Shown here: in pieces, positions 6,759 through 50,107 of the stretch
Numbering within the stretch: position 1 is the stretch's first letter
Layout of the letters: each line of letters opens with the position of its first letter
Origin: Klebsiella phage KP2025
Direction: 5' to 3' (one strand)
Sequence record: PP919962.1
DNA length: 64,000 nt
Notes under the pieces: generated by a model
Told to the model about the DNA's origin: nothing
What the model saw: the letters and a program-made list of their open reading frames with translations, nothing else
Databases searched by the model: none
Position numbers and translations under genes: made by a program

Positions 6759-6817
6759 GTATATTCTCCTTTATTTTTGTTTACTGGGGAGAGCCATCTC
6801 TCCCCTTTGTGAAACTT

Positions 6818-12729: not shown

Positions 12730-12775
12730 GTTTATCTCCTTTTTGAGGAGGGAGCCTATCTCCCTCTTGACACAT

Positions 12776-26582: not shown

Positions 26583-26600
26583 GTTTACCTCCTCGTAAGG

Positions 26601-26915: not shown

Positions 26916-26924
26916 GCAACCCCC

Positions 26925-27098
26925 TTAGAGTCTTTCGAATTCAATTTTGGCAAGGTGCATCTCTTTAACAGGAACAAACCCGTTGTAACCGTCAACAATC
27001 CACTCTTTACCATGTCTAACAACAATTTCATATTCACGCAGTTCCAGTTTAGGTACTGCTCGTTCTGTAGCCACCACTTTAAGACGTTTTCCAGACAT
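26925..27098 (-). CDS. small protein (57 aa) missed by ORF track
   Basis: AAGGAG RBS before ATG. Confidence 0.35.
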   Translation of the reverse strand: MSGKRLKVVATERAVPKLELREYEIVVRHGKEWIVDGYNGFVPVKEMHLAKIEFERL

Positions 27099-27108
27099 TG
27101 TCAACTCC

Positions 27109-27333
27109 TTACTCTACGATCTCCCAAACACCAAACAAGCATTCTGGATACAAAGCATAAATCTTAACGCCACGATCATTGGTAAGAATCATACCATTTT
27201 CCCCCACAGTACCACCAAAAACAATATCAGGATCACCAGATCCAGCTTCAACAGTATACAAACGGTCTTCTGTAATATAATCAAACCGGGATTGAACACA
27301 ACGTACAACATTACCTTTCTTCATTACTCGCAT
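27109..27333 (-). CDS. small protein, paralog family member (74 aa)
   Basis: see 25530..25754; ends GVWEIVE. Confidence 0.45.
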   Translation of the reverse strand: MRVMKKGNVVRCVQSRFDYITEDRLYTVEAGSGDPDIVFGGTVGENGMILTNDRGVKIYALYPECLFGVWEIVE

Positions 27334-27334
27334 A

Positions 27335-28402
27335 TTAATTCTCCTCTAAGAGCTTGTCAATGGCTTTGATAGCCTGATTGATACGATTTTCATAGTCCGT
27401 ACCAGTAATATGTACTACCGGAACGTCACGGTATAGGTCATGCACCATGTCCCACAATAAAGTGTTAGTGTACTCTCGCTTACTATCTGTATCTTGCAGA
27501 CGGAGAGGATCAGCCACCCATTCCACTTCTGGGGAAAGGTATAACACCATATCATAGAAGTTATGAGCTTCTTCAACAGCTAACGACATAAACATACCAT
27601 CATTATAGCCCACTTTACCAGCACAAATTGCAGAAAAATGCGTTATAAGATTGGTTGTATCTGAAATATGCACCACATGTGCCTGATTTGAGTTACTAAA
27701 TTCCTCAATACGATGGATCATAGCAATCTTAAGATATGCTTCACGATCCATTAAAAATTCACTGCCATTGTACATCTGTTCGCAAATATGCCGCCCTACT
27801 TCGGGTGTTGATGTTGTTCCATAGTGTTGTGCTAGAAGCTCAGTCATAGTGGATTTGCCAGTGCTCTCAACACCAATGATAGCTACACGTTTTACAAAAC
27901 GAGGACGAGCTTGATCTGACAGATAATCGAAGTTGTCGCGTAGATTAGTACGAATACGTGTTGCAGAGATATCCACTCCTGTACGCTCTGCATCCAACAC
28001 AACATGCTCCACCTCCGGGAAATGCTCAGAGAAGTATTCAGTATACTCCGGCTCAGAAGAGAAAGCATGAGTGAGGATCTCACCTTCTGGGATTTTAGCA
28101 CGAATCAACTCGGCATAAGCCTTACCACCTTCTGGATAGCCAGGGATATTAGACTCATCAACATAATCTACAATCACTCTGTGTTGTAATCCTGAATCTT
28201 GAATTAAAGATTTAAGATCCAATAAACGCTGGGTTAAACCAAGACGGTCTTGCATCCAAGGTGTTTGAGTGTTGTTAAACTTCTGGTCAAACGACAGAAA
28301 CAGGTATAGCCGATCAATACCTGAATCTACAGCCATACGAATGAAGTTGACGTGTCCTGCTGTTAGTGGTGCAAATTTACCGAAAATTAAGCCTACGTTC
28401 AT
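27335..28402 (-). CDS. nadR: NadR-like bifunctional NMN adenylyltransferase / ribosylnicotinamide kinase (no HTH domain)
   Basis: N-terminal nucleotidyltransferase motif GKFAPLTAGHVNFI (H-x-GH); C-terminal P-loop GVESTGKST as in NadR kinase domain. Confidence 0.75.
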   Translation of the reverse strand: MNVGLIFGKFAPLTAGHVNFIRMAVDSGIDRLYLFLSFDQKFNNTQTPWMQDRLGLTQRLLDLKSLIQDSGLQHRVIVDYVDESNIPGYPEGGKAYAELIRAKIPEGEILTHAFSSEPEYTEYFSEHFPEVEHVVLDAERTGVDISATRIRTNLRDNFDYLSDQARPRFVKRVAIIGVESTGKSTMTELLAQHYGTTSTPEVGRHICEQMYNGSEFLMDREAYLKIAMIHRIEEFSNSNQAHVVHISDTTNLITHFSAICAGKVGYNDGMFMSLAVEEAHNFYDMVLYLSPEVEWVADPLRLQDTDSKREYTNTLLWDMVHDLYRDVPVVHITGTDYENRINQAIKAIDKLLEEN

Positions 28403-37475: not shown

Positions 37476-38060
37476 CCTGATATTATCTGATATTTTAAAA
37501 ATTTTATTTTTAGAATAAAGGGGGCGGGGGTTCAGATTTCCAGAGCCTCCAGCTTTCTAATCTAAATTACTACGTATTCTTAATAAATGATAACCGAATG
37601 TTCTCCCTACTTAAAACCAATTTGGAGCGAACATTTTTTGTTGCATAAACAGGTCATAAAACATAACCCTACCTTAGTTATAGAACAAATCAAAGGAAAA
37701 GTTTCTAAAATTATTTAAAGTTTCTACAGATTTCTTTGAACTTTTACCTAAAAACAAAATTTAAAATTTCCCTAAATTATTTAAACTTTTTCTGTATCTT
37801 ACTACAGAAAAAACGTAAACTAAAATTTAAAATTTCCAAAAAATTCCCCAATTATTAAAAGTTTTTCAACTTTTCGATCTGCATTTTTCCAAAAGCAAAA
37901 TTTAGAATTCTCTAAAAATTTCCAGATGCATATGATAATCATTATTATTTGCAAATGAGAATCATTCCCATTTAAAAAGTTGAATGAGAATCATTCTCAT
38001 CTACAAACCGAAATGATTCTCATTCGCATCTGCGGAATGACAGGCAGGTTCGGTGTTTGT
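37476..38060. repeat. AT-rich non-coding island with direct repeats and palindromes (ori / regulator-site candidate)
   Basis: AAAATTTAAAATTTCC at 37757 and 37822, variant at 37897; Fur-box-like TGATAATCATTATTAT at 37933; ATGAGAAT-C-ATTCTCAT perfect palindrome at 37984-38000; related half-sites at 37955 and 38012. Confidence 0.6.
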
Positions 38061-38581: not shown

Positions 38582-38610
38582 TTGACGCGAGGATCACACC
38601 GAGCTATTAT
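38582..38610 (+). promoter_or_regulatory. sigma70-like promoter TTGACG-17-TATTAT
   Basis: upstream of 38663 gene. Confidence 0.5.
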
Positions 38611-38662
38611 TTCCTACACAAGGCGAGGCGATAGGCGCTGCGCGCACTAGGAAGAAAAGAAA

Positions 38663-38884
38663 ATGGCAACATTACACGTCGTAGTTTATAAGCACGCTGT
38701 AACGGGTGATGATATGATCCAGGTGCTTGTTAATGGCTTTTGTGAAATGGAAAGAGAAGGCGATTTTAACGGTTATTGTATTGTGTGTGCTTTCCTTGAT
38801 TCCCTGGTCGAAATGTGCGTGATCACTCACGACCAGCGCGAAGCGAAGATCAACCGCCTGAAAAAACTTTTAGATATCGAATAA
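38663..38884 (+). CDS. hypothetical protein (73 aa)
   Basis: ORF. Confidence 0.5.
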   Translation: MATLHVVVYKHAVTGDDMIQVLVNGFCEMEREGDFNGYCIVCAFLDSLVEMCVITHDQREAKINRLKKLLDIE

Positions 38885-38891
38885 AAACCGC

Positions 38892-38950
38892 TTGACAGAT
38901 TCACACAGTAACGTATAATTCACTTCATAGGCAGCGGGAATGGTTCCCGC
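38892..38950 (+). promoter_or_regulatory. early cassette: TTGACA-16-TATAAT promoter plus leader hairpin GCGGGAA-TGG-TTCCCGC
   Basis: hairpin 38934-38950 ends 23 nt before ATG 38974. Confidence 0.55.
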
Positions 38951-38973
38951 GCCGATACAAAGAGATTAAAATT

Positions 38974-39510
38974 ATGTCTGACATCATCGAAACTTTCAAA
39001 TTCTCCCGTAATAACATCGACTTTACTGTTAATGTAGTATGTGCACAATGTTATGATGGTTTTGGTGATCAATGGAAGATGACCGATACGCACGAGGGCG
39101 GCGTGACTATCAAAAATGCCGACGCCGGGCGGAATAGTTATAAATATGCCATTCCCCAGCAAACTACCCTGGCGGAGCTGGCAAGCTACTACGCTGCACA
39201 AGGGCGAGAAAACCCTAGCCGCGAAGCCTATGAAAGTTTACAGCGGCAATTATCACGAGATATTAACGCAAGTGATTATTATTTCACGGTTGACGCTAGC
39301 GCCGGATCTCATACCCTGTTAGATGGTGCGGTGATCGCTTGCGGGTTCGACTACTCATATGATGATGAGGGATCATTGTTAGACGCCGCCCAGGAAGTGT
39401 GGAAAGAGCACGATGGGGAAGCCGAAGCCCTGGAAGAGGCAACAAAAGCGGCGCGTGTTCTCTTGGAAGCTGTGGATGTGTTGAAAAGTATTGTTGAAAA
39501 CGCGCAATAA
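38974..39510 (+). CDS. hypothetical protein (178 aa, acidic C-terminus)
   Basis: ORF. Confidence 0.55.
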   Translation: MSDIIETFKFSRNNIDFTVNVVCAQCYDGFGDQWKMTDTHEGGVTIKNADAGRNSYKYAIPQQTTLAELASYYAAQGRENPSREAYESLQRQLSRDINASDYYFTVDASAGSHTLLDGAVIACGFDYSYDDEGSLLDAAQEVWKEHDGEAEALEEATKAARVLLEAVDVLKSIVENAQ

Positions 39511-39513
39511 TAC

Positions 39514-39542
39514 TTGACGCGCCCAAAGAAAGGGCGCATAAT
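39514..39542 (+). promoter_or_regulatory. promoter TTGACG-[GCGCCC aaagaaa GGGCGC]-CATAAT with palindromic spacer
   Basis: 17-nt spacer is an inverted repeat. Confidence 0.55.
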
Positions 39543-39572
39543 TCTCCTACACCAACAAAAGAGATTTGAAAA

Positions 39573-39863
39573 ATGAAAATTTCAGAGAACAAAGATTTAA
39601 TTTTCACCGTTAAAAATTATATCCGCCACCCGTATGAATTTGGCGGATATCCGAAAATTTTAATTATGCGTGATGGTAGTTGCCTTTGCTCAAAGTGTAC
39701 GCATGAAAATTTTCCCCGCCTATTGGAAGAATTAAGAGATGAGAGTGATCTAGCATGGATGCCCGCGGACGTGGATGTTTTCTGGGAAGGTGCGGATTTC
39801 CCGTGTGGTAATTGCGGGACTCCGATCCATAGTGCATATGGAGATCCCGAAGAAGAAGAATAA
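39573..39863 (+). CDS. hypothetical Cys-rich protein (96 aa)
   Basis: CLCSKC...CGNCG, acidic tail. Confidence 0.5.
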   Translation: MKISENKDLIFTVKNYIRHPYEFGGYPKILIMRDGSCLCSKCTHENFPRLLEELRDESDLAWMPADVDVFWEGADFPCGNCGTPIHSAYGDPEEEE

Positions 39864-39866
39864 ATA

Positions 39867-39924
39867 TTGACAAGCATCTAAAAGATAATAAACTGTTAAT
39901 CAAAGGGCGGGAATGGTTCCCGCC
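39867..39924 (+). promoter_or_regulatory. early cassette: TTGACA-16-TAAACT promoter plus hairpin GGCGGGAA-TGG-TTCCCGCC
   Basis: near-identical to cassette at 41452. Confidence 0.55.
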
Positions 39925-39944
39925 ACAATAAAGAGAGAAAAATT

Positions 39945-40091
39945 ATGAAACAACGTGTAATGAAAATCCACACCAACACCGGATCAACCGTTGTAACTCC
40001 CTCCCGTTTCGCTATCGCAAGCCGTTGCGCTCGTTTGAAACGTGAGTTAAAATCTAACCAGGGCGCGGGGTTTACCAGATGGGGGAAATAA
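39945..40091 (+). CDS. small basic protein (48 aa) missed by ORF track
   Basis: ATG 21 nt after hairpin; AGAGAGAAAAATT leader. Confidence 0.4.
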   Translation: MKQRVMKIHTNTGSTVVTPSRFAIASRCARLKRELKSNQGAGFTRWGK

Positions 40092-40098
40092 TAACGTA

Positions 40099-40359
40099 AT
40101 GAAGCCACTGTTTTTAAACTGTGAGGGCGAGGTGATCGCCTTCATGGATTCAACAGCCTACGATCTGGCACGGTATGCAATGACGTTTAAAGAGAACGTT
40201 TACAAACGGATTGGCGGCGGATACACTATCTTTAATCATCGTAATGCTGAGGTAAAGGACGTCACAAAGGTCGAGATAGGCAAATATCGGATCGGATGGA
40301 TGCCGTCAAGAGACGCGGCGAGCCTTTACCGTGTTTGCGAGTTAGTAACAAGGGGTTAG
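40099..40359 (+). CDS. hypothetical protein (86 aa)
   Basis: ORF. Confidence 0.5.
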   Translation: MKPLFLNCEGEVIAFMDSTAYDLARYAMTFKENVYKRIGGGYTIFNHRNAEVKDVTKVEIGKYRIGWMPSRDAASLYRVCELVTRG

Positions 40360-40362
40360 CCT

Positions 40363-40911
40363 ATGGGGCGCGAGCATGTTGTACAATCTTGGGTAAAACA
40401 TGATGAGGATGATTGGCGGGTAATACCGCCCCACCTCCTAGAAACTGCCAGCGGATACAGTGGCGAGCAAGTGGGGCAACGTGTAGCCCGTAACAACGGG
40501 AACACGGCGATTCGCGCCACGATTCCTGGTTGGCTGCCAAATGGCCGCGCCGACATTGCAGGGGCGGCAGATCCAGCGGATGAAGCAAAAGGTGATCCGC
40601 TACTGCTAGTAGATCCAGCGTTTAAGACGCTGTTAGAATACCCTAGCAAGGTGGCGGCACTGGAAGCGGCGTATCGGGCGGGTAAATTGCCGGATAGCTT
40701 ATATCGTAGCGCCTTGCGCGTCTTAGACGTGAAAGCAGATAAGGCACAGCGTAAAATTGATAAGCTGATTGGATCTGTCCTCCTGGAGGAAGAGAACGCG
40801 CCGGAGGAAGAGCCGGAGCTTGACCCGGTAGTCCTGGAAGAGGACGCGATCACGCCGTATCATCCTACGCCGGAAGAGGCAGCGCAAGCCCTGCGAAATT
40901 ATTTCAAATAA
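40363..40911 (+). CDS. hypothetical protein (182 aa, acidic Pro/Glu-rich C-terminus)
   Basis: ORF. Confidence 0.5.
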   Translation: MGREHVVQSWVKHDEDDWRVIPPHLLETASGYSGEQVGQRVARNNGNTAIRATIPGWLPNGRADIAGAADPADEAKGDPLLLVDPAFKTLLEYPSKVAALEAAYRAGKLPDSLYRSALRVLDVKADKAQRKIDKLIGSVLLEEENAPEEEPELDPVVLEEDAITPYHPTPEEAAQALRNYFK

Positions 40912-40915
40912 GGGA

Positions 40916-40976
40916 TTGACAAGCGCCCAAGAGGGGCGCATAATTCATCACATAGGGCGGCAATGATGCCGACACC
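40916..40976 (+). promoter_or_regulatory. early cassette: TTGACA-[GCGCCC aagag GGGCGC]-CATAAT plus GGCGGCA-like leader hairpin
   Basis: palindromic spacer; hairpin 40956-40976. Confidence 0.55.
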
Positions 40977-40990
40977 AAAGAGGATAGATT

Positions 40991-41107
40991 ATGTTAATCA
41001 AGAAAGAAAACTGCTTTTTCACTGGTATTATTAATGCGCTGATCCTTTCGGTTCCATTGTGGGTAGTTATCGGTTTTACTTTGTGGTTAGTATCAAAAGC
41101 AGCGTAA
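40991..41107 (+). CDS. small membrane peptide (38 aa) missed by ORF track
   Basis: hydrophobic helix. Confidence 0.35.
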   Translation: MLIKKENCFFTGIINALILSVPLWVVIGFTLWLVSKAA

Positions 41108-41114
41108 AAACTAG

Positions 41115-41175
41115 TTGACAGGCAGATCCAAAGGGTCTAATATTCATATCAAGGCGGGGAGATAGGCGAACCGCC
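41115..41175 (+). promoter_or_regulatory. early cassette: TTGACA-17-TAATAT plus leader hairpin GGCGG...CCGCC
   Basis: upstream of 41197. Confidence 0.5.
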
Positions 41176-41196
41176 AAAGCTGAAAAGGTTAGCATT

Positions 41197-41424
41197 ATGG
41201 CAAAGTCAAAAGGTTTTAACGGTCACAAAAACTGGAATCATTGGAACGTTTCATTATGGATCAATAATGACGAGGGATTATACCGCCTTGCAATGAATTG
41301 CATTTCATCCACTGACAACCGCGACGAAGCCGCCGCCAAAATGTTGCGCAGCGTGAGCAAGAAAACGCCGGACGGCGCACCGTACAGCAAAACCACGATC
41401 CGCGCTGCGATGGTTGGAATGTAG
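41197..41424 (+). CDS. hypothetical protein (75 aa)
   Basis: ORF. Confidence 0.5.
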   Translation: MAKSKGFNGHKNWNHWNVSLWINNDEGLYRLAMNCISSTDNRDEAAAKMLRSVSKKTPDGAPYSKTTIRAAMVGM

Positions 41425-41451
41425 AAAAATCGTCAATCTTATAAAATAAGG

Positions 41452-41507
41452 TTGACAACCTTCTAAAATAAAGTAAACTGTTAATCAAGGCGGGAATAGT
41501 TCCCGCC
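41452..41507 (+). promoter_or_regulatory. early cassette: TTGACA-16-TAAACT plus hairpin GGCGGGAA-TAG-TTCCCGCC
   Basis: paralog of 39867 cassette. Confidence 0.55.
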
Positions 41508-41526
41508 ACAACAAAGAGAGAAAATT

Positions 41527-41688
41527 ATGATTGCCATGAATACTCGCGAAGCCGCTCGCAACGTAGCCCGTAAAGTTAACGCCGTTGCACCTGCTAAATT
41601 GAAAGCACCAGTGAAAGGCGAAAACGGCTGGATCTTCCCTGGCTTGTCTCATGCTGACGGAAAAGGCACCTTGAGCCTGAAAAAATAA
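41527..41688 (+). CDS. small basic protein (53 aa) missed by ORF track
   Basis: ATG 20 nt after hairpin. Confidence 0.4.
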   Translation: MIAMNTREAARNVARKVNAVAPAKLKAPVKGENGWIFPGLSHADGKGTLSLKK

Positions 41689-41689
41689 G

Positions 41690-41726
41690 TTGACTTTTCG
41701 TTATGCCGTGCTATCCTGTACGGCAT
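41690..41726 (+). promoter_or_regulatory. promoter TAAGTTGACTTTTCG...TATCCT with -10 inside palindrome ATGCCGT-N10-ACGGCAT
   Basis: first of three paralogous promoters (41690, 42034, 42290). Confidence 0.5.
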
Positions 41727-41782
41727 AGAGAAAAAGAAACATCCGGCAATAATGCCAAAATCATCAATAAAGGAGATAAACA

Positions 41783-42027
41783 TGACTACTACTAACCTGC
41801 TGAAAACCCCGCGTATCGGTGATTCTGTATTCATTGGTTTTGCCACTAATGGGGACGGCAAAATGGTTAAAGGTGGCGCTGAAATTCCGTTCGATAAGGT
41901 GGCGGCAATCTACGCCGAAACTTCCACCACTAAGGACGGCAAAATCATGCATCATGTACGCACAGCAAGCGGCGACGCCGTTGCAGTGATCGGTTGTTCA
42001 AAAAACTACTGGCACGCTGTTAAATAA
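41783..42027 (+). CDS. hypothetical protein (81 aa)
   Basis: AAGGAG RBS. Confidence 0.5.
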
Positions 42028-42033
42028 ATATCG

Positions 42034-42070
42034 TTGACTTTTCGTTATAGCGTCCTATAATGGGCGCTAT
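42034..42070 (+). promoter_or_regulatory. promoter TTGACT-16-TATAAT with -10 inside palindrome TATAGCG...CGCTATA
   Basis: paralog of 41690. Confidence 0.5.
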
Positions 42071-42108
42071 AGAGAAGAGAAACTAGCCCAACAAAAGAGA
42101 GTAAGAAA

Positions 42109-42282
42109 ATGGAAATTATCGCAGAACTTAGAATAAAAGGTATCGATCCGGTCATTATGACTTATGAGGATCTGCAATATACCGTAACATATGGTGAACA
42201 ATCTGAAACTTACGATTATTACGATGAAGCGGAGCAGGCTTTTAACGCGTTTGCCGAGATTGCCCTAGATGAATATCGTTAA
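42109..42282 (+). CDS. small acidic protein (57 aa) missed by ORF track
   Basis: ORF. Confidence 0.4.
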   Translation: MEIIAELRIKGIDPVIMTYEDLQYTVTYGEQSETYDYYDEAEQAFNAFAEIALDEYR

Positions 42283-42289
42283 AAATAAG

Positions 42290-42326
42290 TTGACTTTCTG
42301 TGATGCCCCTTTATAATAAGGGGCAT
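42290..42326 (+). promoter_or_regulatory. promoter TTGACT-16-TATAAT with -10 in loop of ATGCCCCTT-TATAAT-AAGGGGCAT
   Basis: perfect 9-bp arms flank the -10 hexamer. Confidence 0.55.
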
Positions 42327-42362
42327 TGAAGAGAGAAGACCAACAATCTAACGAGGTGTAAA

Positions 42363-42584
42363 ATGGTTACATTTGCAATTATTTCCCTGGTGGCTGGCAA
42401 CGTGTTTATCAATGATACTTTCGCGGCGGATGATAGCAAGCCAGGAGAAATCAGCACAGCTTATGCAGATTGTAAAGCCGCTGAACGTATGTTATCGCCT
42501 TGCCTGCTGATGAGTGAACGCGAGGACGGGAAAATCGTATTCACCAACGTTGAAACCTGGTATCAATTGGTAGTTGCAAAATAA
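42363..42584 (+). CDS. secreted or membrane small protein (73 aa)
   Basis: N-terminal hydrophobic segment. Confidence 0.5.
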   Translation: MVTFAIISLVAGNVFINDTFAADDSKPGEISTAYADCKAAERMLSPCLLMSEREDGKIVFTNVETWYQLVVAK

Positions 42585-42632
42585 ATTTCATCTGATAGAA
42601 TACTGACATCACTTAAGTAAAAGGGAAATAAT

Positions 42633-42860
42633 ATGAAACGCAAAATCACTATTTCTTATGAGTGGACGCAAGCAGATGGTAGTGAAGTACTGGATCACCA
42701 CAAAGAGTACTTGGAAGAGTCAGCCGATGAGCGTATCCGGGAACAGATTGGAGCAGGTTGTATTAAGGGGCAATTGCTCGACAACATCCACACGCAGGAA
42801 GATCCCGACGACCACGAAGGGACAGAGTATAAAGGTTGGTGGACTTTAATTATCGAGTAA
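42633..42860 (+). CDS. hypothetical protein (75 aa)
   Basis: ORF. Confidence 0.5.
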   Translation: MKRKITISYEWTQADGSEVLDHHKEYLEESADERIREQIGAGCIKGQLLDNIHTQEDPDDHEGTEYKGWWTLIIE

Positions 42861-42947
42861 AATTAGTGGCAAAATAAATTTAGTACTTTATAATACTTAC
42901 CTACAGACAGATAGTCTGTTCTTATTTGACTACAACAGAGTAATGAA

Positions 42948-43100
42948 ATGAATCCTAATCATAAAATGATGATGGAAGCAAGCCGTTTTATCAATAAAAC
43001 AGAAAAAAGAAAATGTTTTGTTTTATGTCTCATAACGCTTGCAATTGGTTTAGCTTGTGTTATTATTACTTACGCTGATTTATCAAATACCACTAAATAA
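42948..43100 (+). CDS. small membrane peptide (50 aa) missed by ORF track
   Basis: ORF. Confidence 0.35.
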   Translation: MNPNHKMMMEASRFINKTEKRKCFVLCLITLAIGLACVIITYADLSNTTK

Positions 43101-43111
43101 GAGATAAGATT

Positions 43112-43468
43112 ATGAATAACATCCTGATCGAGAAACGCGCCGAACTGCTGGAAGTTAAACAGGCTATCTATGCAAAACAGAGGGAGATCCGCAACTTCTC
43201 TTATGAGTCAACTGATGATGAGTATGATTCTTATTTGGATGGATGCTATGGCGATCTTGACGTTTGCGGCAGCACTTTCAGCGCGTCCTATGCTCTTAAA
43301 AACCTTGACCCTACGGCGTACCGTTGCGGCAAGTCAGATTATGACAGCGAAAAAGATCTTGACGATGTGCCGGAGTATGTTACACTCACGGAAGAGCTGG
43401 AAGAGCTGGAAGAGCTGGAAAGCGATCTTGAAAGTGAGATTGAAGAGCTGGAAGAGAGCGAAGAATAA
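43112..43468 (+). CDS. highly acidic protein with LEELEE repeats (118 aa)
   Basis: C-terminus TEELEELEELESDLESEIEELEESEE. Confidence 0.55.
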   Translation: MNNILIEKRAELLEVKQAIYAKQREIRNFSYESTDDEYDSYLDGCYGDLDVCGSTFSASYALKNLDPTAYRCGKSDYDSEKDLDDVPEYVTLTEELEELEELESDLESEIEELEESEE

Positions 43469-43481
43469 TTTTAAAAACAGG

Positions 43482-43537
43482 TTGACACGGTAGACGGTTT
43501 AAAGTAGATTAGTATTCAAGGGGGAGCGGTTCCCCCC
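43482..43537 (+). promoter_or_regulatory. early cassette: TTGACA-17-TAGATT plus hairpin GGGGGA-GCGGT-TCCCCC
   Basis: upstream of 43561. Confidence 0.5.
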
Positions 43538-43560
43538 ACTAACAACAAAGGCGATACATC

Positions 43561-43932
43561 ATGAAATCAGCAGAGAAAATTAAATCTTACATCCTGGCGG
43601 CGATTGATTTTGAAGGTGAGAACGGCAAAACGTTTACCACCGAGGGAGAGAAGATCACCGAACTGATGCGCCGCTTTAAATGTGAATATTGGTATCCAGC
43701 AAATCAGCAGCGCTACGGCACCATGACAAAAGCAATGGCCTCGTGGTTGCAGGGATTGCCGAGTGAAATCGGCATTGCATTCTATTATGATGAGATTGAT
43801 TCTCTTTTGATTGAGTGGGGTTATCTGAAACATACTAGCCGCGAAGCAACAATTGACCGCGAGCGGGATCAATACTGGCTTTATCTGGCAGGTTCACTAA
43901 TGAGCCTTGCGAAGCGGTATAATCTAGCTTGA
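43561..43932 (+). CDS. hypothetical protein (123 aa)
   Basis: ORF. Confidence 0.5.
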   Translation: MKSAEKIKSYILAAIDFEGENGKTFTTEGEKITELMRRFKCEYWYPANQQRYGTMTKAMASWLQGLPSEIGIAFYYDEIDSLLIEWGYLKHTSREATIDRERDQYWLYLAGSLMSLAKRYNLA

Positions 43933-43961
43933 GATTGAATCTGGCATAAGATACACAATAA

Positions 43962-43979
43962 GAGCGGCAGCAATGCCGC
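43962..43979 (+). promoter_or_regulatory. leader hairpin AGCGGCA-GCAA-TGCCGCT (GNRA tetraloop family)
   Basis: upstream of small gene 44009. Confidence 0.5.
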
Positions 43980-44008
43980 TAACATTAAAATAAAACGAGG
44001 GTTTAAAA

Positions 44009-44143
44009 ATGAATGGTAGCCACCACGTCGAAAAAATGGCAAGCGATAAACAGCGAAAAGCATGGGACGATGAAACCGGGCGCAAAGGAGACAAGCGCAA
44101 CAAAACAAAACGAGATCGAAGTCAAAAACGGAATTGGGAATAA
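44009..44143 (+). CDS. small very basic protein (44 aa) missed by ORF track
   Basis: ORF. Confidence 0.35.
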   Translation: MNGSHHVEKMASDKQRKAWDDETGRKGDKRNKTKRDRSQKRNWE

Positions 44144-44145
44144 TA

Positions 44146-44178
44146 AGGAGGGGCGCTGAATGCGCCTCTTTCCGTTTA
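44146..44178 (+). terminator. rho-independent terminator AGGGGCGC-TGAAT-GCGCCTCT + TTCCGTTT
   Basis: GC stem plus T-rich tail. Confidence 0.5.
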
Positions 44179-44260
44179 TACAGCGTTTTCTATAGTGAGC
44201 CATACAAACACCAGGGAGCACCATAAAAACCGCTTAGAACGCATTACAGGAGCTTAGACA

Positions 44261-44443
44261 ATGACATTAGAACAGATTCAAAAGGCACTAGCCCAGGGCG
44301 GCAGACTTTCAGCACGTTACCGTGATCAATGGGGCTTTATCATTAGCGGCGTGATCCTGGCTATTGAGGGCGGCGACCTGCTGATCGATACCCTGAAAAA
44401 CCGAGTGAAGCCGGAGATGGTGATATCTATCAAGTACCTTTGA
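44261..44443 (+). CDS. hypothetical protein (60 aa)
   Basis: leader contains conserved CCGCTTAGAACGCATTACAGGAGCTTAGACA block. Confidence 0.45.
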   Translation: MTLEQIQKALAQGGRLSARYRDQWGFIISGVILAIEGGDLLIDTLKNRVKPEMVISIKYL

Positions 44444-44534
44444 TTGATAGGTTTAAACGATTAGACACTGCATCGATAATGGCACATAGTGAATACATAA
44501 AGCGGGGCAAAGGCCAGCTAGGGGAGGAAACGAA

Positions 44535-44918
44535 ATGAAAAAATTTATCATCGCCGCTATGCTGGCAGCAGTAAGCGCCAGCGCAGCAGCAGACACCGAG
44601 ATCAACGTGATGAGCGCAAGCCGTGATTTACGCGCCAGCATTGAAAAAATGTTAATTGTATCAGGCGATAATAACGCAACGTTACGATCTTACACCTTAT
44701 CAAAAACCTTTGAGGACGCGCTTGATTCTCAAATGATACCTATTCTCAATAATAACCCTGATGCATCATGCGAGCTTATCGCAGCGCGGATCGCGGAAAA
44801 CGGGCGGCAGAACTACGCGCCTTATCAGGTTAACCCACTTATGACAAGGGCTATCGATAATATGATCGGTAAAATGGTTGTTTATACTATGGCGCGGTGT
44901 TATTACTTAAAGGGTTGA
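44535..44918 (+). CDS. secreted protein (127 aa, signal peptide)
   Basis: MKKFIIAAMLAAVSASAAA. Confidence 0.55.
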   Translation: MKKFIIAAMLAAVSASAAADTEINVMSASRDLRASIEKMLIVSGDNNATLRSYTLSKTFEDALDSQMIPILNNNPDASCELIAARIAENGRQNYAPYQVNPLMTRAIDNMIGKMVVYTMARCYYLKG

Positions 44919-44943
44919 CAGGAAGCACTTGATCGATTATCTT
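44915..44943 (+). promoter_or_regulatory. promoter TTGACA-17-TATCTT
   Basis: upstream of 44974. Confidence 0.4.
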
Positions 44944-44973
44944 TAAGCCAGGCAAACAAAAGGGTAAAGAAAA

Positions 44974-45249
44974 ATGATTCAGGCTAACACTTTAATGATG
45001 TTTCAGGAAGTGCAAAACGCCGCTGTAATGGTTGAGCAATTCCAGGACGGCGACACCATGATCGCCACGTTGAAAGAGAACGCCGAAAGCATCCTAATCA
45101 TTAGCTTGAAAACAGTTTCAAAAGGTTACTACTCCCTTGCTTATCATTTCATTACTAATGATGATGAAACAAGCCAGGATTTTTCCTTGCCTTTCCCGGC
45201 AAATTATGCGCCTTCTTTTGTAGCGGCAATTGTTAATGATGTTTTCTAA
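44974..45249 (+). CDS. hypothetical protein (91 aa)
   Basis: ORF. Confidence 0.5.
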   Translation: MIQANTLMMFQEVQNAAVMVEQFQDGDTMIATLKENAESILIISLKTVSKGYYSLAYHFITNDDETSQDFSLPFPANYAPSFVAAIVNDVF

Positions 45250-45532
45250 TGGGTAACGAATAAAGAAAGTCAATAGCTTTTCCAGTTATTTTTCATTTTT
45301 GCGTTATGCAAAAAAGTGAATTTAAAGACTTCTCACGCAAGATGATTAAGGGTATGGCAAACGGTTAGAGCCTCTTAGAATGCGTTTTAGAGCGTTTTAG
45401 AGGGTATTGACTTTTCCCGAAATACTCAAAGCGTCTTAAATTTAGTTTCATCGTGTGATTATTTGCATACGGGTGCATTTCTATGCAATTTAGTGAATAA
45501 TGTAAAAATGCAGAATATTACATTCCTCCCTA

Positions 45533-45598
45533 TTGACTACCGCGCCCAATTTGTTATGATTTATCACATAGGGCGGGGCAATAATGCAGCGCCACAAA
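45533..45598 (+). promoter_or_regulatory. early cassette: TTGACT-16-TATGAT (half-palindromic spacer ACCGCGCCC) plus GGCGGGGCA...GCGCC leader hairpin
   Basis: upstream of ATG 45616. Confidence 0.5.
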
Positions 45599-45615
45599 AT
45601 CCGAAGGATTGCATC

Positions 45616-46074
45616 ATGAATAAATTCTGTGTAGGTCAAAAAGTTATTGATTGTTTCAATGATCGTAAACTGTTAACGATTGTTAAAACTTTTGAATCTG
45701 GTCAAATCGAGCTTGAAAACGGCGTGATCACCTATACGGATCGGGTTCAACGCCAAGAGCATTACCTTGACCATACAAATTACCTGTACCATCATTCTCG
45801 TTTTGGTGATGCTGTATGCATGATCAATGAAGCGTTTCAAGAGTACATTTCAGCACTTGCCGAAATGGGAGATTTATGCTCTTATCCTGGGGAATCTGTT
45901 TTCATAATGAAAGCGCGTACCATGTGCCAAACGTGGATCGACGAAGCCGCCGCGAGGATTGAGCATGGTTTAGCCTGGAAGCGTACAGCAGAACATAATT
46001 TATCACAGTGGTATCGTGTACCGCTTGATCATCACTTCCCATTCCTTAACCCTGAAAATGTGACAGACTACTAA
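45616..46074 (+). CDS. hypothetical protein (152 aa); ORF-track start at 45463 rejected
   Basis: AAGGA RBS 8 nt before ATG 45616; upstream extension would span the promoter. Confidence 0.5.
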   Translation: MNKFCVGQKVIDCFNDRKLLTIVKTFESGQIELENGVITYTDRVQRQEHYLDHTNYLYHHSRFGDAVCMINEAFQEYISALAEMGDLCSYPGESVFIMKARTMCQTWIDEAAARIEHGLAWKRTAEHNLSQWYRVPLDHHFPFLNPENVTDY

Positions 46075-46083
46075 AAAATAGTG

Positions 46084-46143
46084 TTGACAGCGCCCAATAA
46101 AGGGCGCATAATTCATTACATAAGGCGGGGAGTGGTTCCCCGC
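46084..46143 (+). promoter_or_regulatory. early cassette: TTGACA-[GCGCCC aataaa GGGCGC]-CATAAT plus hairpin GCGGGGA-N5-TCCCCGC
   Basis: palindromic spacer promoter class. Confidence 0.55.
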
Positions 46144-46161
46144 TAAATGAGAGATTTAATT

Positions 46162-46386
46162 ATGTTCGATTTAGACAGACTGGCAACAGCGATTGAAAAA
46201 GCAGGTGATGCAAAGTATGGCATCCAAGATCATTACTTTATCGGTCAATATCCTGATGGTACTTACTACGGTGTATTGTCTAATAAAGTGAAAAGCCGTA
46301 GCAGCGCCGCGCAACTGCGAAGCCCGGAATTTTTCGAACAAAAAGGCATTAAAGCGATCAAGGTTATGAAGCGTAAAGCTAAATAA
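46162..46386 (+). CDS. hypothetical basic protein (74 aa; alternative start 46147)
   Basis: ATG 19 nt after hairpin as in sister cassettes. Confidence 0.45.
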   Translation: MFDLDRLATAIEKAGDAKYGIQDHYFIGQYPDGTYYGVLSNKVKSRSSAAQLRSPEFFEQKGIKAIKVMKRKAK

Positions 46387-46388
46387 AT

Positions 46389-46418
46389 TTGACAACGCGC
46401 CCGGTAAGGGCGCATAAT
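46389..46418 (+). promoter_or_regulatory. promoter TTGACA-[ACGCGCCC ggtaa GGGCGC]-ATAAT with palindromic spacer
   Basis: upstream of 46448. Confidence 0.5.
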
Positions 46419-46447
46419 GCTACCAAGTCAATAGCGAGAGCGACAAT

Positions 46448-46684
46448 ATGAAAACGAAAAGCATTCTCATTAACAAAAAATTTCCCAATCGTGTATGGGA
46501 GATCAGCGAAGTGATCAACGCGGGGACGATTGAACAATATAACCGTTTGATCGGGTATATCCGGGAAACTGAATGCGGTTATGTGTGGACTCATTCTGGA
46601 CTAAACCGCGAAAGCGCAAGCTATTTCCCAACAAAACCCCTTGCGCTGGTAGGTTTAAAGCTGGTGCATCAAGATTATAAATAA
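46448..46684 (+). CDS. hypothetical protein (78 aa)
   Basis: ORF. Confidence 0.5.
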   Translation: MKTKSILINKKFPNRVWEISEVINAGTIEQYNRLIGYIRETECGYVWTHSGLNRESASYFPTKPLALVGLKLVHQDYK

Positions 46685-46691
46685 TTTATTT

Positions 46692-46725
46692 CGCCCCGGG
46701 GCTTGATCTCCCTGGGGCGTTTTGC
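46692..46725 (+). terminator. rho-independent terminator CGCCCCGG...CCTGGGGCG + TTTTGCTAT
   Basis: GC stem plus T run. Confidence 0.55.
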
Positions 46726-46740
46726 TATCCTTATTTTGTG

Positions 46741-46759
46741 GGCGGGAATGGTTCCCGAC
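46741..46759 (+). promoter_or_regulatory. leader hairpin GGCGGGAA-TGG-TTCCCGAC
   Basis: 19 nt before ATG 46778. Confidence 0.5.
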
Positions 46760-46777
46760 ACATAACGGGGATTTAAC

Positions 46778-47077
46778 ATGCAACCTTTACAATTACTTTC
46801 CACTTTACGCGCTATCGCCAACAACACTCTGATCGCTTGCCAGCGCCAGGAGTTTAAACCTGAATTCATCTATAAGAATCATAACCAGCAGTTAGCCACA
46901 ATTGAACAGGCAATTAGTGGTTACAAAATGGGGGTAAAGGTTAACGCGAAATATAAAGCGGAGATCAAGAAAATAACGCTTGCACCAATGAAGGAAAAGA
47001 CCTATTATCTAATCAGCGAGCAGGTGAAAGGCGGCGTAAGCCAGTTAACAAGCGCCATAGAATTTATGAAGCGCTAA
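46778..47077 (+). CDS. hypothetical protein (99 aa)
   Basis: ORF. Confidence 0.5.
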   Translation: MQPLQLLSTLRAIANNTLIACQRQEFKPEFIYKNHNQQLATIEQAISGYKMGVKVNAKYKAEIKKITLAPMKEKTYYLISEQVKGGVSQLTSAIEFMKR

Positions 47078-47088
47078 CAATCCAGGAG

Positions 47089-47106
47089 GGCGGCAGCAAT
47101 GCCGCC
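47089..47106 (+). promoter_or_regulatory. leader hairpin GGCGGCA-GCAA-TGCCGCC (GNRA tetraloop)
   Basis: perfect 7-bp stem. Confidence 0.55.
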
Positions 47107-47117
47107 AACAATGAAGA

Positions 47118-47381
47118 ATGAAAAACATCATTTACCGATTGACAAAACGCAACATTCTGATCGCTACTGTGATCGCTTGCCTTTTCGCTTTCGTTAGTAA
47201 CGCAACGTTTAACGCTGTGGGCGGGATGATGTTTAACGCTGGCAACGTTTCAACAGCTAACACAATGATCGACCTTTTGCAACTTTTCTTTTATGTTGCC
47301 TTTCGTTTAAAAATAGCTTGCAAACTGGATCGCTATGATGTACCTTTTATTTGTGGCGGCGTGATAGCTATTGTATGTTAA
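47118..47381 (+). CDS. small membrane protein (87 aa)
   Basis: hydrophobic helix; alternative 28-aa ORF from ATG 47111. Confidence 0.45.
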   Translation: MKNIIYRLTKRNILIATVIACLFAFVSNATFNAVGGMMFNAGNVSTANTMIDLLQLFFYVAFRLKIACKLDRYDVPFICGGVIAIVC

Positions 47382-47395
47382 CCGGAGTAAAAACA

Positions 47396-47688
47396 TGTTA
47401 AGATCTAACAAAAATTTAAAATTACGTCAATCCCTCGTTAATATGGCGATCAGTGTTGAGCCGTACAAACGAAAAGAGCCTAAGCAAGATATGCGAGGAC
47501 GGAAAACAACCTGGACAGATCAACAGGTATTAGAGATCCGGGCCTTACATAAATATGGCGGCATGTTACCCGCCGAAATTGCAGAACGTTACAACACGAC
47601 AAAAGGCGCAATAAATAGCTTGCTTTCTTATGTAACCCGCGTACACTTAGAGCCAGAAAGAAAACATTTACCAGCGAGAGAGGCTTGA
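47396..47688 (+). CDS. putative HTH DNA-binding protein (about 97 aa)
   Basis: GGAG RBS before ATG 47396; LPAEIAERYNTTKGAINSLLS resembles a helix-turn-helix. Confidence 0.4.
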
Positions 47689-47763
47689 CAATAGCAGCGG
47701 GTCTGGTAAAGTGTATCACGTAGGCCGAGGAATAAGCCGAAGCCCGTCAAAGAGGTTAGAAAC

Positions 47764-47961
47764 ATGTTTACTTACTTGCTAATTAATGATTCATCTAATG
47801 AAGTGGTACATACTGATAAACCATCTTTACCGGGTTTTCGTCATTTTGGTAAATATGAAAATTGCAAGCAAATTTCGTGCTTTACTGGAAAGGTCATTTC
47901 CACCGTTGAGGATGATTTGGAAATCCTCACAAAAATTTGTAACTTGCGTTTAACTAAATAG
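47764..47961 (+). CDS. hypothetical protein (65 aa)
   Basis: ORF. Confidence 0.45.
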   Translation: MFTYLLINDSSNEVVHTDKPSLPGFRHFGKYENCKQISCFTGKVISTVEDDLEILTKICNLRLTK

Positions 47962-47963
47962 GA

Positions 47964-48356
47964 ATGATTCTCATGTCCAACTTCGATATCTTTTTAGCGG
48001 CTTATATTGAGGCTATGTTGTGGAGTAGTAGCGGGACAACCCCGGACGGGGAAGATCTGGAAAGTCTGGAAGGGTTCGAACTTTCCACCGAAGCAAAACG
48101 CAAGGCAAAGGAAGAATGCGAACAATTCTTATTTGTATCACAGATCCTTTTCCTGGGGCTGCCTGAATGGTACGGAAAAGGCGACGGCGGGATCTATACT
48201 TATGCGGGGCATGATTTTTGGCTTACTCGCAACGGTCACGGCGCTGGATTCTGGGATCGTGGGCTTGAGGATATAGGCGACCGCTTAACAGAAGTTAGTA
48301 AAACTTTTGGGGAGCTTGATCCATACATTGGCGACGATGGGAAAATTTATTTTTAA
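47964..48356 (+). CDS. hypothetical protein (about 127 aa; start 47964 or 47973)
   Basis: leader contains GAATGATTCTCAT half-palindrome. Confidence 0.5.
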   Translation: MILMSNFDIFLAAYIEAMLWSSSGTTPDGEDLESLEGFELSTEAKRKAKEECEQFLFVSQILFLGLPEWYGKGDGGIYTYAGHDFWLTRNGHGAGFWDRGLEDIGDRLTEVSKTFGELDPYIGDDGKIYF

Positions 48357-48362
48357 AAACGC

Positions 48363-48419
48363 TTGCAACGCTGATCGCCGTTTGCTATAGTTACTTTGAA
48401 GGGCGGGAACTTCTCCCGC
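48363..48419 (+). promoter_or_regulatory. early cassette: TTGCAA-17-TATAGT plus hairpin GCGGGA-ACTTC-TCCCGC
   Basis: upstream of 48442. Confidence 0.55.
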
Positions 48420-48441
48420 TCAATCCTCAAAGGGTAAGAAA

Positions 48442-48705
48442 ATGGAAATCATCCTGGAACGTTACACCGTCAAAGAAACTGGCCTGATCGCTTTCAAACG
48501 TTTGGTAGTGGTTCAAAATGCAAATGGACTCTTTGAGGTTGTTAAAGAAGTTGATTATGGTCGGGGCGCTGGTGTGACAGTGGCAAAGATGCCTATCAAG
48601 CCTTATAAAACCCGTAAGGGCGCAGAAAAGGCGATGCAAGCCTATCAGCCTAAACGCTATCAAATGACCCTAGTCGAGGGTTTAATGATGGAAGGTAAAA
48701 TCTAA
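48442..48705 (+). CDS. hypothetical protein (87 aa)
   Basis: ORF. Confidence 0.5.
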   Translation: MEIILERYTVKETGLIAFKRLVVVQNANGLFEVVKEVDYGRGAGVTVAKMPIKPYKTRKGAEKAMQAYQPKRYQMTLVEGLMMEGKI

Positions 48706-48712
48706 CAATTCA

Positions 48713-48734
48713 GGGGAGCCGCTACGGTTCCCCA
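48713..48734 (+). promoter_or_regulatory. leader hairpin GGGGAGCC-GCTAC-GGTTCCCC
   Basis: 18 nt before ATG 48752. Confidence 0.5.
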
Positions 48735-48751
48735 TCTTTGGAATAATAAAA

Positions 48752-48946
48752 ATGACTAGTAGCGAAGAAATTAGAAAAGCCATAGCTGTTTTACGCTATC
48801 ATAACCGATTAAAGGTTATTAATGACCCTGATTATGTAGGATCAACATTTGAGGCGGATACATTGGACAGTATATCATCGTTAGCAGAGTTACATAAACG
48901 TATGACCGAAAGTAACAGATCGGATTTTATCGGTGGGGAAATATAA
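48752..48946 (+). CDS. hypothetical protein (64 aa)
   Basis: ORF. Confidence 0.45.
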   Translation: MTSSEEIRKAIAVLRYHNRLKVINDPDYVGSTFEADTLDSISSLAELHKRMTESNRSDFIGGEI

Positions 48947-49738: not shown

Positions 49739-50107
49739 ATGACTATCATCAATCTGAATACTACTATTAAAGGTAAAGATTTTGGCGGCGTAGTAGATCA
49801 TGATCCGATGTGGTCACTTTCTGTTTTCAAAGGTGATTTAATCGATGTTGTAACCATTGACAGCGGGTCAGATGATTATAAGTGTGAAATTCATCTTACA
49901 AACTGGTACACTGGCAAAGTTTACGCCCTGGATCGCGTGATCATCGGTCGAATCGAAACATTAGAGGACGAAGAAACCGGAGAAACCTTTGATTATTATA
50001 TCAATAGCACTAACCGCGCAGAACGCTTGTTAGAGAAGATGAAAGAAAAAGGAACTATTGATTTATCTCACTGGGTGGACATTACAAACGATCCAGCCTA
50101 CAAATAA
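49739..50107 (+). CDS. hypothetical protein (122 aa)
   Basis: ORF. Confidence 0.55.
   Translation: MTIINLNTTIKGKDFGGVVDHDPMWSLSVFKGDLIDVVTIDSGSDDYKCEIHLTNWYTGKVYALDRVIIGRIETLEDEETGETFDYYINSTNRAERLLEKMKEKGTIDLSHWVDITNDPAYK

Follow-up and report, generated by a model that had tools for sequence, protein, structure and literature searches.

Many of the small genes on the plus strand at approximately 38.5-50 kb of the window, as we call the whole stretch of 64,000 nucleotides analysed from Klebsiella phage KP2025 (PP919962.1), are preceded by a short GC-rich hairpin just upstream of the start codon. What is this repeated element, and does it act in the DNA or in the RNA? A first, sequence-only reading had listed twelve such hairpins, sorted them into two conserved families and proposed, among other roles, that they protect the 5' ends of the messengers. 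Judged from comparison of the sequences, the hairpins are the stem-loop part of repeated cassettes made of a promoter, a stem-loop and a Shine-Dalgarno (SD) sequence, which head most of the small early ORFan genes. This larger unit, of the promoter-early stem-loop (PeSL) type (PMC2839356), had gone unrecognised in the first reading.

All twelve listed hairpins were present. The region from 38.5 to 49 kb contained 13 perfect GC-rich hairpins (stem of at least 6 bp with at least five G-C pairs), every one of them intergenic, whereas 200 dinucleotide-preserving shuffles gave 1.24±1.1 hairpins and never more than 5. Elsewhere in the window, stretches of 10.5 kb held 0-5. The pattern of the first family (GGCGGGAANNNTTCCCGCC, with up to two mismatches) occurred five times and was absent from every shuffle. 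Folding of the RNA between the predicted start and the ATG gave the hairpin as the minimum-free-energy structure in 14 leaders out of 14, with energies of -9.8 to -17.6 kcal/mol and z-scores of -1.0 to -5.7. In these folds 3-5 nt were free on the 5' side, and the SD and the AUG were mostly unpaired. The hairpins are confirmed as real and beyond chance.

By megablast the block matched Klebsiella myophages of the Stephanstirmvirinae, the best match being KP13-26 (93.5% identity over 94% of the query), with patchy matches only in FKP3, phi1_175008, FBKp34 and KP13-16. The window phage is an rV5/phi92-like Klebsiella myophage of the Stephanstirmvirinae. Hairpins, promoters and starts were tabulated for ten loci: the window and nine related loci from five Klebsiella relatives, E. 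coli PD06, Citrobacter Tr1 and the Vequintavirinae KpS8 and FV3. A site with at least 10 of 12 hexamer matches was counted as promoter-like. At least ten such promoters (10-12 of 12 matches) were located directly upstream of hairpins on the plus strand of the window, and the FBKp34 record carries promoters annotated independently at matching positions. The parts come in the following order. The stop codon of the previous gene lies in an AT-rich stretch (an AT fraction of 0.70 in the 20 nt upstream of the -35, compared to 0.56 region-wide) and is followed by the -35 TTGACA, 16-18 nt, the -10, a linker of 9-12 nt often reading ...ATCACATAG or ...TTAATCAA, the stem-loop, an A-rich leader with the SD (ACAAYAAAGAGAGAAAA) and the ATG.

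Among 144 distinct promoter-like sites in the ten loci, 45 had a post -10 hairpin, starting 5-15 nt past the -10, against a chance expectation of about 2 (background of 1.26 hairpins per kb). Six sites had a hairpin in the spacer and eight had one over the -10. In the 38 distinct cases combining promoter, hairpin and ATG, the loops measured 3-6 nt and the stems 6-11 bp, and the distance from the -10 to the stem was 9-12 nt in 31. The distance from stem to ATG was 15-28 nt in these cases and 11-28 nt in the window; the range of about 11-23 nt given earlier was too narrow. A stem beginning 9-12 nt past the -10 places the hairpin within a predicted 2-6 nt or so of the 5' end of the mRNA, and the promoter geometry makes it probable that the post -10 hairpin lies at the RNA 5' end. 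The first reading had put a hairpin at the extreme 5' end of each mRNA. This agrees with the sigma-70 promoter found directly upstream of most copies; it is not supported for three copies with no convincing promoter (43963, 47089 and 48713), nor for sister hairpins located in the spacer or over the -10, which cannot lead their own transcripts. The cassettes of the window are listed below.

Hairpin cassettes and related elements in the window (positions are those of the window; promoters are given as -35, spacer length and -10)
Feature	Position	Strand	Promoter	Hairpin	ATG	Remarks
Cassette	38582..38665	+	TTGACG-17-TATTAT, 38582-38610	38623-38643, weak, imperfect	38663	SD; -9.9 kcal/mol, z -1.0; weakest member
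Cassette	38892..38976	+	TTGACA-16-TATAAT (consensus), 38892-38919	38931-38953, core GCGGGAA-TGG-TTCCCGC from 38934	38974	A-rich SD leader; -16.5 kcal/mol, z -3.7
Spacer-class cassette	39514..39575	+	TTGACG-[GCGCCC-AAAGAAA-GGGCGC]-CATAAT	palindrome 39519-39537	39573	no post -10 hairpin
Cassette	39867..39947	+	TTGACA-16-TAAACT, 39867-39894	39906-39924, GGCGGGAA-TGG-TTCCCGCC	39945	
Two-hairpin cassette	40916..40993	+	TTGACA-17-CATAAT	spacer palindrome 40923-40939; leader 40956-40973, GGCGGCA-ATGA-TGCCGAC	40991	G.A mismatch in leader hairpin
Cassette	41115..41199	+	TTGACA-17-TAATAT	41153-41175, GGCGG/CCGCC, 13-nt loop	41197	-13.5 kcal/mol, z -2.4
Cassette	41452..41529	+	TTGACA-16-TAAACT	41489-41507, GGCGGGAA-TAG-TTCCCGCC	41527	z -5.7
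Three over -10 promoter hairpins	41690..42335	+		41695-41734, 42038-42079, 42294-42335		
Cassette	43482..43563	+	TTGACA-17-TAGATT	43520-43536, GGGGGA-GCGGT-TCCCCC	43561	
Hairpin	43963..44011	+	weak at best	43963-43980, AGCGGCA-GCAA-TGCCGCT	44009	z -4.1
Cassette	45533..45618	+	TTGACT-16-TATGAT	45572-45593, imperfect, 2x2 internal loop	45616	
Two-hairpin cassette	46084..46164	+	TTGACA-17-CATAAT	spacer palindrome 46090-46107; leader 46124-46144, GCGGGGA-GTGGT-TCCCCGC (core at 46125)	46162	outer G.U in leader hairpin
Spacer-only cassette	46389..46450	+	TTGACA-[GCGCCC-GGTAA-GGGCGC]-CATAAT	palindrome 46397-46413	46448	
Terminator and leader hairpin	46692..46780	+	TTGATC-17-TATCCT, weak, overlaps terminator	46741-46759, GGCGGGAA-TGG-TTCCCGAC	46778	intrinsic terminator 46692-46719 (10-bp stem, then TTTT); one G.A mismatch in leader hairpin
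Mobile module	47089..47381	+	none of its own	47089-47106, GGCGGCA-GCAA-TGCCGCC		ORF 47118-47381
Cassette	48363..48444	+	TTGCAA-17-TATAGT	48401-48421, GGGCGGGA-ACTTC-TCCCGCTC	48442	one G.U
Intercistronic hairpin	48713..48754	+	none	48713-48733, GGGGAGCCG-CTA-CGGTTCCCC	48752	kept between differing flanking genes in four relatives
Cassette	6786..6805	-	TTGACA-16-TAGAAT	12 nt past -10, GGGGAGA-GATGGC-TCTCCCC		A-rich SD, then ATG
Cassette	12746..12768	-	TTGACA-16-TAATAT	7 nt past -10, AAGAGGGAG-ATAGG-CTCCCTCCT		SD, then ATG

The sequences of the stems differed widely. Across the group at least 25 different 5' arms were counted (for example GGCGGGAA, GGCGGCA, GGCGGTGG, GGGGCG, GTGGCGG, GCCCCGG and GGGAGAG), and 55 hairpins had 34 different loops. 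In a comparison centred on the loop, stem positions 1-6 were paired in 96-100% of the hairpins and position 7 in 88%, with several pair types seen at each position. In 1000 column shuffles the observed pairing was never reached at positions 1-7 and was reached once at position 8. MAFFT alignments of the hairpins mis-registered the 3' arms, and loop-centred sequences were used for the pair counts instead; these counts are partly circular, as the hairpins had been chosen for pairing, and comparisons between orthologues therefore weigh more. In the leader of gene 41527, GGCGGGAA-TAG-TTCCCGCC of the window is replaced by AGCGGTAA-TAG-TTATCGCT in FBKp34 between near-identical flanks: all five stem substitutions preserve pairing, with two double compensatory changes and one change from G-C to G.U. 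In phi1_175008 the hairpin 48713 shows a G.U to A-U and a C-G to U.G change, and the outer G.U of hairpin 46125 is A-U in KP13-26 and FBKp34. The position of the 43520 hairpin is occupied by GGCGGGAA-TTG-TTCCCGCC in KP13-26 and by GCGGGA-GTTGT-TCCCGC in FKP3. The pair-preserving substitutions indicate selection on the pairing rather than on one sequence. Taken jointly, the cassette identity and the selection on pairing appear very probable.

The opposite view, that sequence rather than structure is conserved, holds inside one genome only. Cassettes 39867-39941 and 41452-41524 are paralogues with 88% identity over 75 nt, and the similarity of the hairpins within the genome follows from such paralogous, recombining cassettes. 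The GNRA loop, considered as the mark of the second family, was rejected as a conserved recognition motif: the GCAA loop of 47089 is ATGA in the 90%-identical cassette of PD06, and the orthologues of hairpin 43963 read GGCGGGA-ACT-TCCCGCC, with the loop ACT in KP13-26, FKP3 and phi1_175008. The hairpins assigned to the families do exist, with a correction at 43963, where the 5' arm is AGCGGCA and not GGCGGCA. A covariance model (R1) turned out to be sequence-specific: it recovered the first family and its mirror images on the opposite strand and missed other stems, for example those of both minus-strand cassettes. An Rfam scan of the window gave no family at the gathering threshold, and a single hit (E=0.82) when E values up to 1 were allowed.

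The same layout, with different stems, was also observed in Stephanstirmvirinae relatives, in Vequintavirinae and in the jumbo phage 121Q. Escherichia phage 121Q (KM507819) carries six near-identical cassettes per 10 kb at approximately 138.7-153 kb, composed of TTGACA-16-TATAAT, 12 nt, GGGGAGAA-TAG-TTCTCCCC, an A-rich SD and the ATG. With one cassette as query, blastn found similar sequence in 162 phage records (Vequintavirus, Justusliebigvirus, Phapecoctavirus and others). Among 40 of these records that were listed, a single one had the cassette annotated, under the label "terminator". Scanning IMG/VR for exact matches to the pattern GGCGGGAANNNTTCCCGCC yielded, for the most part, single hits that were unrelated, and only a few loci were informative (121Q, rV5-like and phi92-like contigs). 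The rV5 genome paper lists promoters and terminators and leaves leader hairpins unmentioned (PMC3606486). Our reading of the literature, incomplete in coverage and weak as evidence, gave no account of such leader hairpins, nor start-site data, for rV5-like or phi92-like phages. The "Campylobacter phage" records A142, A145 and B15 (~140-150 kb) matched the E. coli rV5-like/phi92-like cassettes, and their host labels seem doubtful.

We propose that the early mRNA would start with 2-6 unpaired nucleotides ahead of a 6-9 bp hairpin that has its G-rich arm first and its C-rich arm second, and that an open, A-rich ribosome site would lie behind it. Once formed in the RNA, the hairpin would limit 5'-end-dependent decay, both the conversion by RppH and the entry of RNase E through its 5' sensor, and would prevent upstream sequence from engaging the ribosome site. 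It may also serve as an intercistronic barrier when it lies within read-through or processed polycistronic RNA, and the repeated cassettes would double as crossover points for gene shuffling. Early cassettes with a 5' hairpin, combining stabilising and recombination roles, are in our opinion the best overall explanation, with somewhat better than even chances of being right. The stabilising function of the post -10 hairpins, drawn by analogy from ompA, papA and RNA I, is a more tentative proposal that we put a little below even.

Several observations weigh against this explanation. The transcription start sites are predicted only. A canonical start 7-8 nt past the -10 would leave 4-6 unpaired 5' nucleotides in about half of the cases. 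From the work of Belasco, 4-6 unpaired nucleotides are reportedly at or beyond the limit of protection. RppH is stated to need only 2-3 free nucleotides, a figure given for the B. subtilis enzyme (PMC3997798). A PeSL stem-loop of RB49 acted as a terminator in a lacZ test (PMC2839356). The three hairpins 43963, 47089 and 48713 come without a convincing promoter of their own, and since the spacer and over -10 hairpins cannot lead their own transcripts, one function cannot cover all classes. An asymmetry of wobble pairs, which would prove an element at the RNA level, is weak: a strict rule gave 4 G.U and 0 A.C, and counting all gave 10 or 15 G.U versus 6 A.C (p=0.08 for the latter). The 5' arms contain 182 G and 44 C, the G-rich arm coming first and the C-rich arm at the 3' side. 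This strong polarity is left unaccounted for by a model of stability alone. It tracks the direction of transcription, as the two minus-strand cassettes (6805->6786 and 12768->12746) also have the G arm first. The borderline 2-6 nt tails, the promoterless copies and the other hairpin classes together make a dual role, as a cap-like 5' structure and as an intercistronic barrier, the most economical form of the proposal.

The other hairpin positions lend weight to a different account, in which the hairpin is an attenuator or a 3'-end barrier in RNA read through from the previous promoter and its place in the leader is incidental. It would terminate or attenuate transcription, or stop 3' exonucleases, thereby defining and stabilising the upstream cistron. 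In four early promoters (39519, 40923, 46090 and 46397) the spacer of 17-18 bp coincides exactly with a palindrome GCGCCC-N5-7-GGGCGC. The hairpins at 41695-41734, 42038-42079 and 42294-42335 are 17-18 bp long, have the -10 hexamer as their loop and show U.G pairs on the plus strand. Formation of the spacer and over -10 hairpins requires read-through RNA or single-stranded DNA, and in the attenuator account they act only in the former. The promoterless hairpins 47089 and 48713 are located 5-12 nt past a stop codon, the tail of 48713 (AUCUUUGG) is weakly U-rich and weakly terminator-like, and the "terminator" label of the one annotated record concerns a homologous element. Attenuation is also the function proposed by the PeSL authors, and the stem-loop of RB49 PeSL211/210 cut lacZ expression as much as rrnB T1 (PMC2839356). 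In 36 of the 38 promoter-linked cases, however, the 8 nt that follow the stem contain no more than two T, and the tails are A-rich. Where termination is needed, the phage has canonical U-tract terminators (46692, 44149 and 50120), and attenuation does not require the tight 9-12 nt spacing from the -10. The terminator 46692-46719 ends only about 20 nt upstream of the leader hairpin 46741, an arrangement that speaks against the leader hairpins being simply terminators. Plain intrinsic-terminator identity was rejected for want of a U tract, 48713 having the only weakly U-rich tail, and the attenuator account in its wider form seems to us rather unlikely. The three consecutive over -10 copies share a conserved outer stem and differ in their inner stems; by their length they are candidate RNase III-type processing sites.

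The hairpin could also be the site recognised by an RNA-binding or processing factor of phage or host origin, such as a regulator of translation or a nuclease that marks or spares the early mRNAs. Many copies have a common apex GAA-URG-UUC, including that of 121Q with its differing lower stem, and the conserved G-first polarity goes beyond structure alone. Such a factor would nevertheless have to accommodate orthologues in which loops and stems vary (TAG, TGA, ATGG or TGG; GCAA, ATGA or ACT). No Rfam family was matched, and the scan of 30 ORFs (open reading frames) revealed neither an RNA-binding nor a nuclease domain; we consider the existence of such a factor improbable. A more specific form, equally much of a long shot, would make the G-first stem and the GAA-URG-UUC apex a "self" tag shared by the early mRNAs of large enterobacterial myophages from several unrelated lineages (Stephanstirmvirinae, Vequintavirinae and 121Q-like jumbo phages) and read by a phage or host factor. 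If true, the tag could, for example, spare phage messages when host mRNA is destroyed in an RNase E-dependent, phage-stimulated process, and would travel from phage to phage on single-gene cassettes. In phage T4, Srd activates RNase E. A Srd homologue was reported for rV5 (PMC3606486). The search of 30 window ORFs for a candidate binding protein, a nuclease or a Srd homologue gave nothing relevant.

The ends of the BLAST blocks between the window and its relatives fell at cassette landmarks, and three cases were clear at the nucleotide level. The two genes 38974-39863 are absent from FKP3, whose sequence runs along cassette 38892 as far as the hairpin and then continues with the KP13-26-type leader of gene 39945, a pattern indicating a crossover inside the shared GCGGGAATGGTTCCCGCGCC of hairpin 38931-38953. 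The module 47089-47381 is missing from FBKp34, phi1_175008 and KP13-16, and the junction falls where the stem ends (47108). Two E. coli phages, PD06 of the Stephanstirmvirinae and FV3 of the Vequintavirinae, carry the module with 90% identity and have a promoter ahead of it. The homology with KP13-26 stops inside hairpin 48401, at position 48409, and another gene follows. In these alignments the cassettes, and often the hairpin itself, are seen directly as points of gain, loss and swap of single genes between related phages. These are individual cases, and intergenic junctions are expected after selection anyway. Two single-ORF segments, 39573-39863 and 47087-47382, are ~90% identical to sequences of other genera or subfamilies (Mydovirus KpS8 for the former, E. 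coli PD06 and FV3 for the latter) between unrelated flanks, which points to recent horizontal transfer of single-gene modules. The ORF of 39573-39863 is mis-annotated as "DNA ligase" in some records.

It might be asked whether recombination homology is all there is, the hairpins persisting with no function in the RNA as the cassettes spread with their genes. The junctions in or at hairpins, the hairpin-plus-ORF modules 90% identical between subfamilies and the paralogous cassettes within the genome would all be accounted for. Homologous recombination needs no self-complementarity, yet compensatory changes maintain the pairing, and the spacing to promoter and ATG is constrained across three phage lineages; we regard this reading as about as improbable as the recognition site, or slightly more so. 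A palindromic DNA operator overlapping +1, by which a dimeric repressor would shut the early promoters off, would occupy the classical position just downstream of the -10 in several near-identical copies per genome, but was rejected as highly improbable because neither the half-site sequence nor its spacing is fixed (loops of 3-6 nt, stems of 6-11 bp and the many arms), the substitutions are compensatory between the arms, G.U pairs occur on the transcribed sense, promoterless copies exist and the early ORFs that were scanned showed no DNA-binding domain.

The surroundings of the cassettes showed further features. Genes of the window are on the minus strand up to ~32 kb and on the plus strand beyond. 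The records of the relatives show rows of "hypothetical protein" genes, to which that of FBKp34 adds predicted promoters between genes, and gene content varies among phages 86-93% identical. Nine of ten early ORFs scanned had no match in Pfam. The sole early-block ORF with a match, 49739-50107, belongs to the Phage_30_8 family (T4 gp30.8-like, E=1.5e-31), and the cassette upstream of it contains a degenerate, non-pairing relic of the hairpin, GGGCAGGAACACG. At 25887-28402 on the minus strand, a PnuC-type NMN transporter (PF04973) is encoded along with an AAA_28 protein that is NadR-like and weakly matches a cytidylyltransferase-like domain (E=0.006, under the Pfam cut-off), a pair that suggests an NAD salvage module. 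The AT-rich segment 37480-38280, of ~800 nt and with no convincing ORF, is 69-83% conserved even in PD06 and KpS8 and could be a replication origin or a regulatory hub. Within it, a direct repeat recurs three times at a period of 66-75 nt (37697-37923), and palindromic boxes AATGAGAATCATTCTCAT are clustered at 37931-38025, Fur-box-like in look and yet more than three mismatches away from the 19-mer consensus. A "non-coding" box is likewise drawn in the rV5 paper (PMC3606486). A perfect sigma-70 promoter, TTGACA-18-TATAAT, at 38276-38247 on the minus strand is directed into this conserved non-coding region and may drive a non-coding RNA.

With these cassettes the notion of the PeSL, in which one element both regulates expression and recombines as a module, would reach from the T4-type phages into at least three further groups of large myophages of enterobacteria, where the elements are almost entirely unannotated. 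The cassettes offer a practical rule for annotating early promoters and locating true start codons in Klebsiella and E. coli phages that are candidates for therapy, explain the source of early-region mosaicism and constitute a natural library of strong promoter/5' hairpin/ribosome binding site units for expression design. Since the same phage has hairpins in three positions relative to the promoter, 5'-end protection and attenuation can be cleanly tested against each other.

Stem-loops at the 5' terminus stabilise several E. coli RNAs, namely ompA, papA and RNA I. The cassettes share with these a short stable hairpin near the 5' end and an accessible ribosome binding site behind it; those hairpins are single, proven and preceded by no more than 2-4 free 5' nucleotides, whereas here a multi-copy cassette has predicted starts and 2-6 nt tails. 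The primary papers on them (Emory, Bouvet, Bricker, Belasco) are listed in a review (PMC3997798). With intrinsic terminators the hairpins have in common a GC-rich stem of 6-9 bp, a short loop and an intergenic position. The leader of the T7 class III (phi10) transcript, used in pET vectors, carries the hairpin GGGAGACCACAACGGTTTCCC, which starts at +1 of the T7 RNA polymerase transcript. It is a G-first, C-last stem-loop a few tens of nucleotides upstream of a strong SD, and its G run is imposed by T7 RNA polymerase. Hairpin 48713 of the window (GGGGAGCCGCTACGGTTCCCC) looks strikingly similar to it; we take this as a lead and not as evidence of homology, and the promoters of the window are those of the host sigma-70.

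The closest likeness is with the PeSLs of the T4-type phages RB49/phi1, PST and nt-1 (Arbiol et al. 2010, PMC2839356; Comeau et al. 2014, PMC4122927). The components of a PeSL are a near-consensus early promoter for sigma-70 together with an AT-rich stretch, a stem-loop of the "Gn-loop-Cn" type in which some pairs are G-T, and the SD with its start codon. The position of its stem-loop is variable, with five subclasses including "downstream of -10". PeSLs are repeated in hyperplastic ORFan regions, where recombination between copies, sometimes within the loop, inserts or deletes ORFans (PMC2839356, PMC4122927). Such recombination is also reported to yield mini-circles, for which inverse PCR was used in RB49. 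The window cassettes likewise have near-consensus sigma-70 early promoters, an AT-rich stretch upstream of the -35, a G-then-C stem-loop in variable position (spacer, over -10 and post -10 classes) and an SD and start codon at the 3' end. They are also repeated in a hyperplastic, ORFan-rich region, and indel or replacement junctions of close relatives fall in them, sometimes inside the stem-loop. The GCGCCC-N5-7-GGGCGC spacer class is the commonest PeSL class in RB49. The differences concern the carriers, here Stephanstirmvirinae, Vequintavirinae and 121Q-like phages and in the described cases T4-type myoviruses, and the place of the stem-loop. The post -10 position dominates here, whereas spacer and over -10 stem-loops prevail in RB49 and those of PST and nt-1 lie upstream of the promoter. 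The U tract is missing here and true terminators coexist with the cassettes, making a terminator role doubtful. At the level of the sequence, with every defining feature present, the window cassettes are the counterpart of PeSLs outside the T4-type phages. What is known is the PeSL-type element in T4-type phages; what is new is its occurrence in other lineages, with the stem-loop mainly in the 5' leader.

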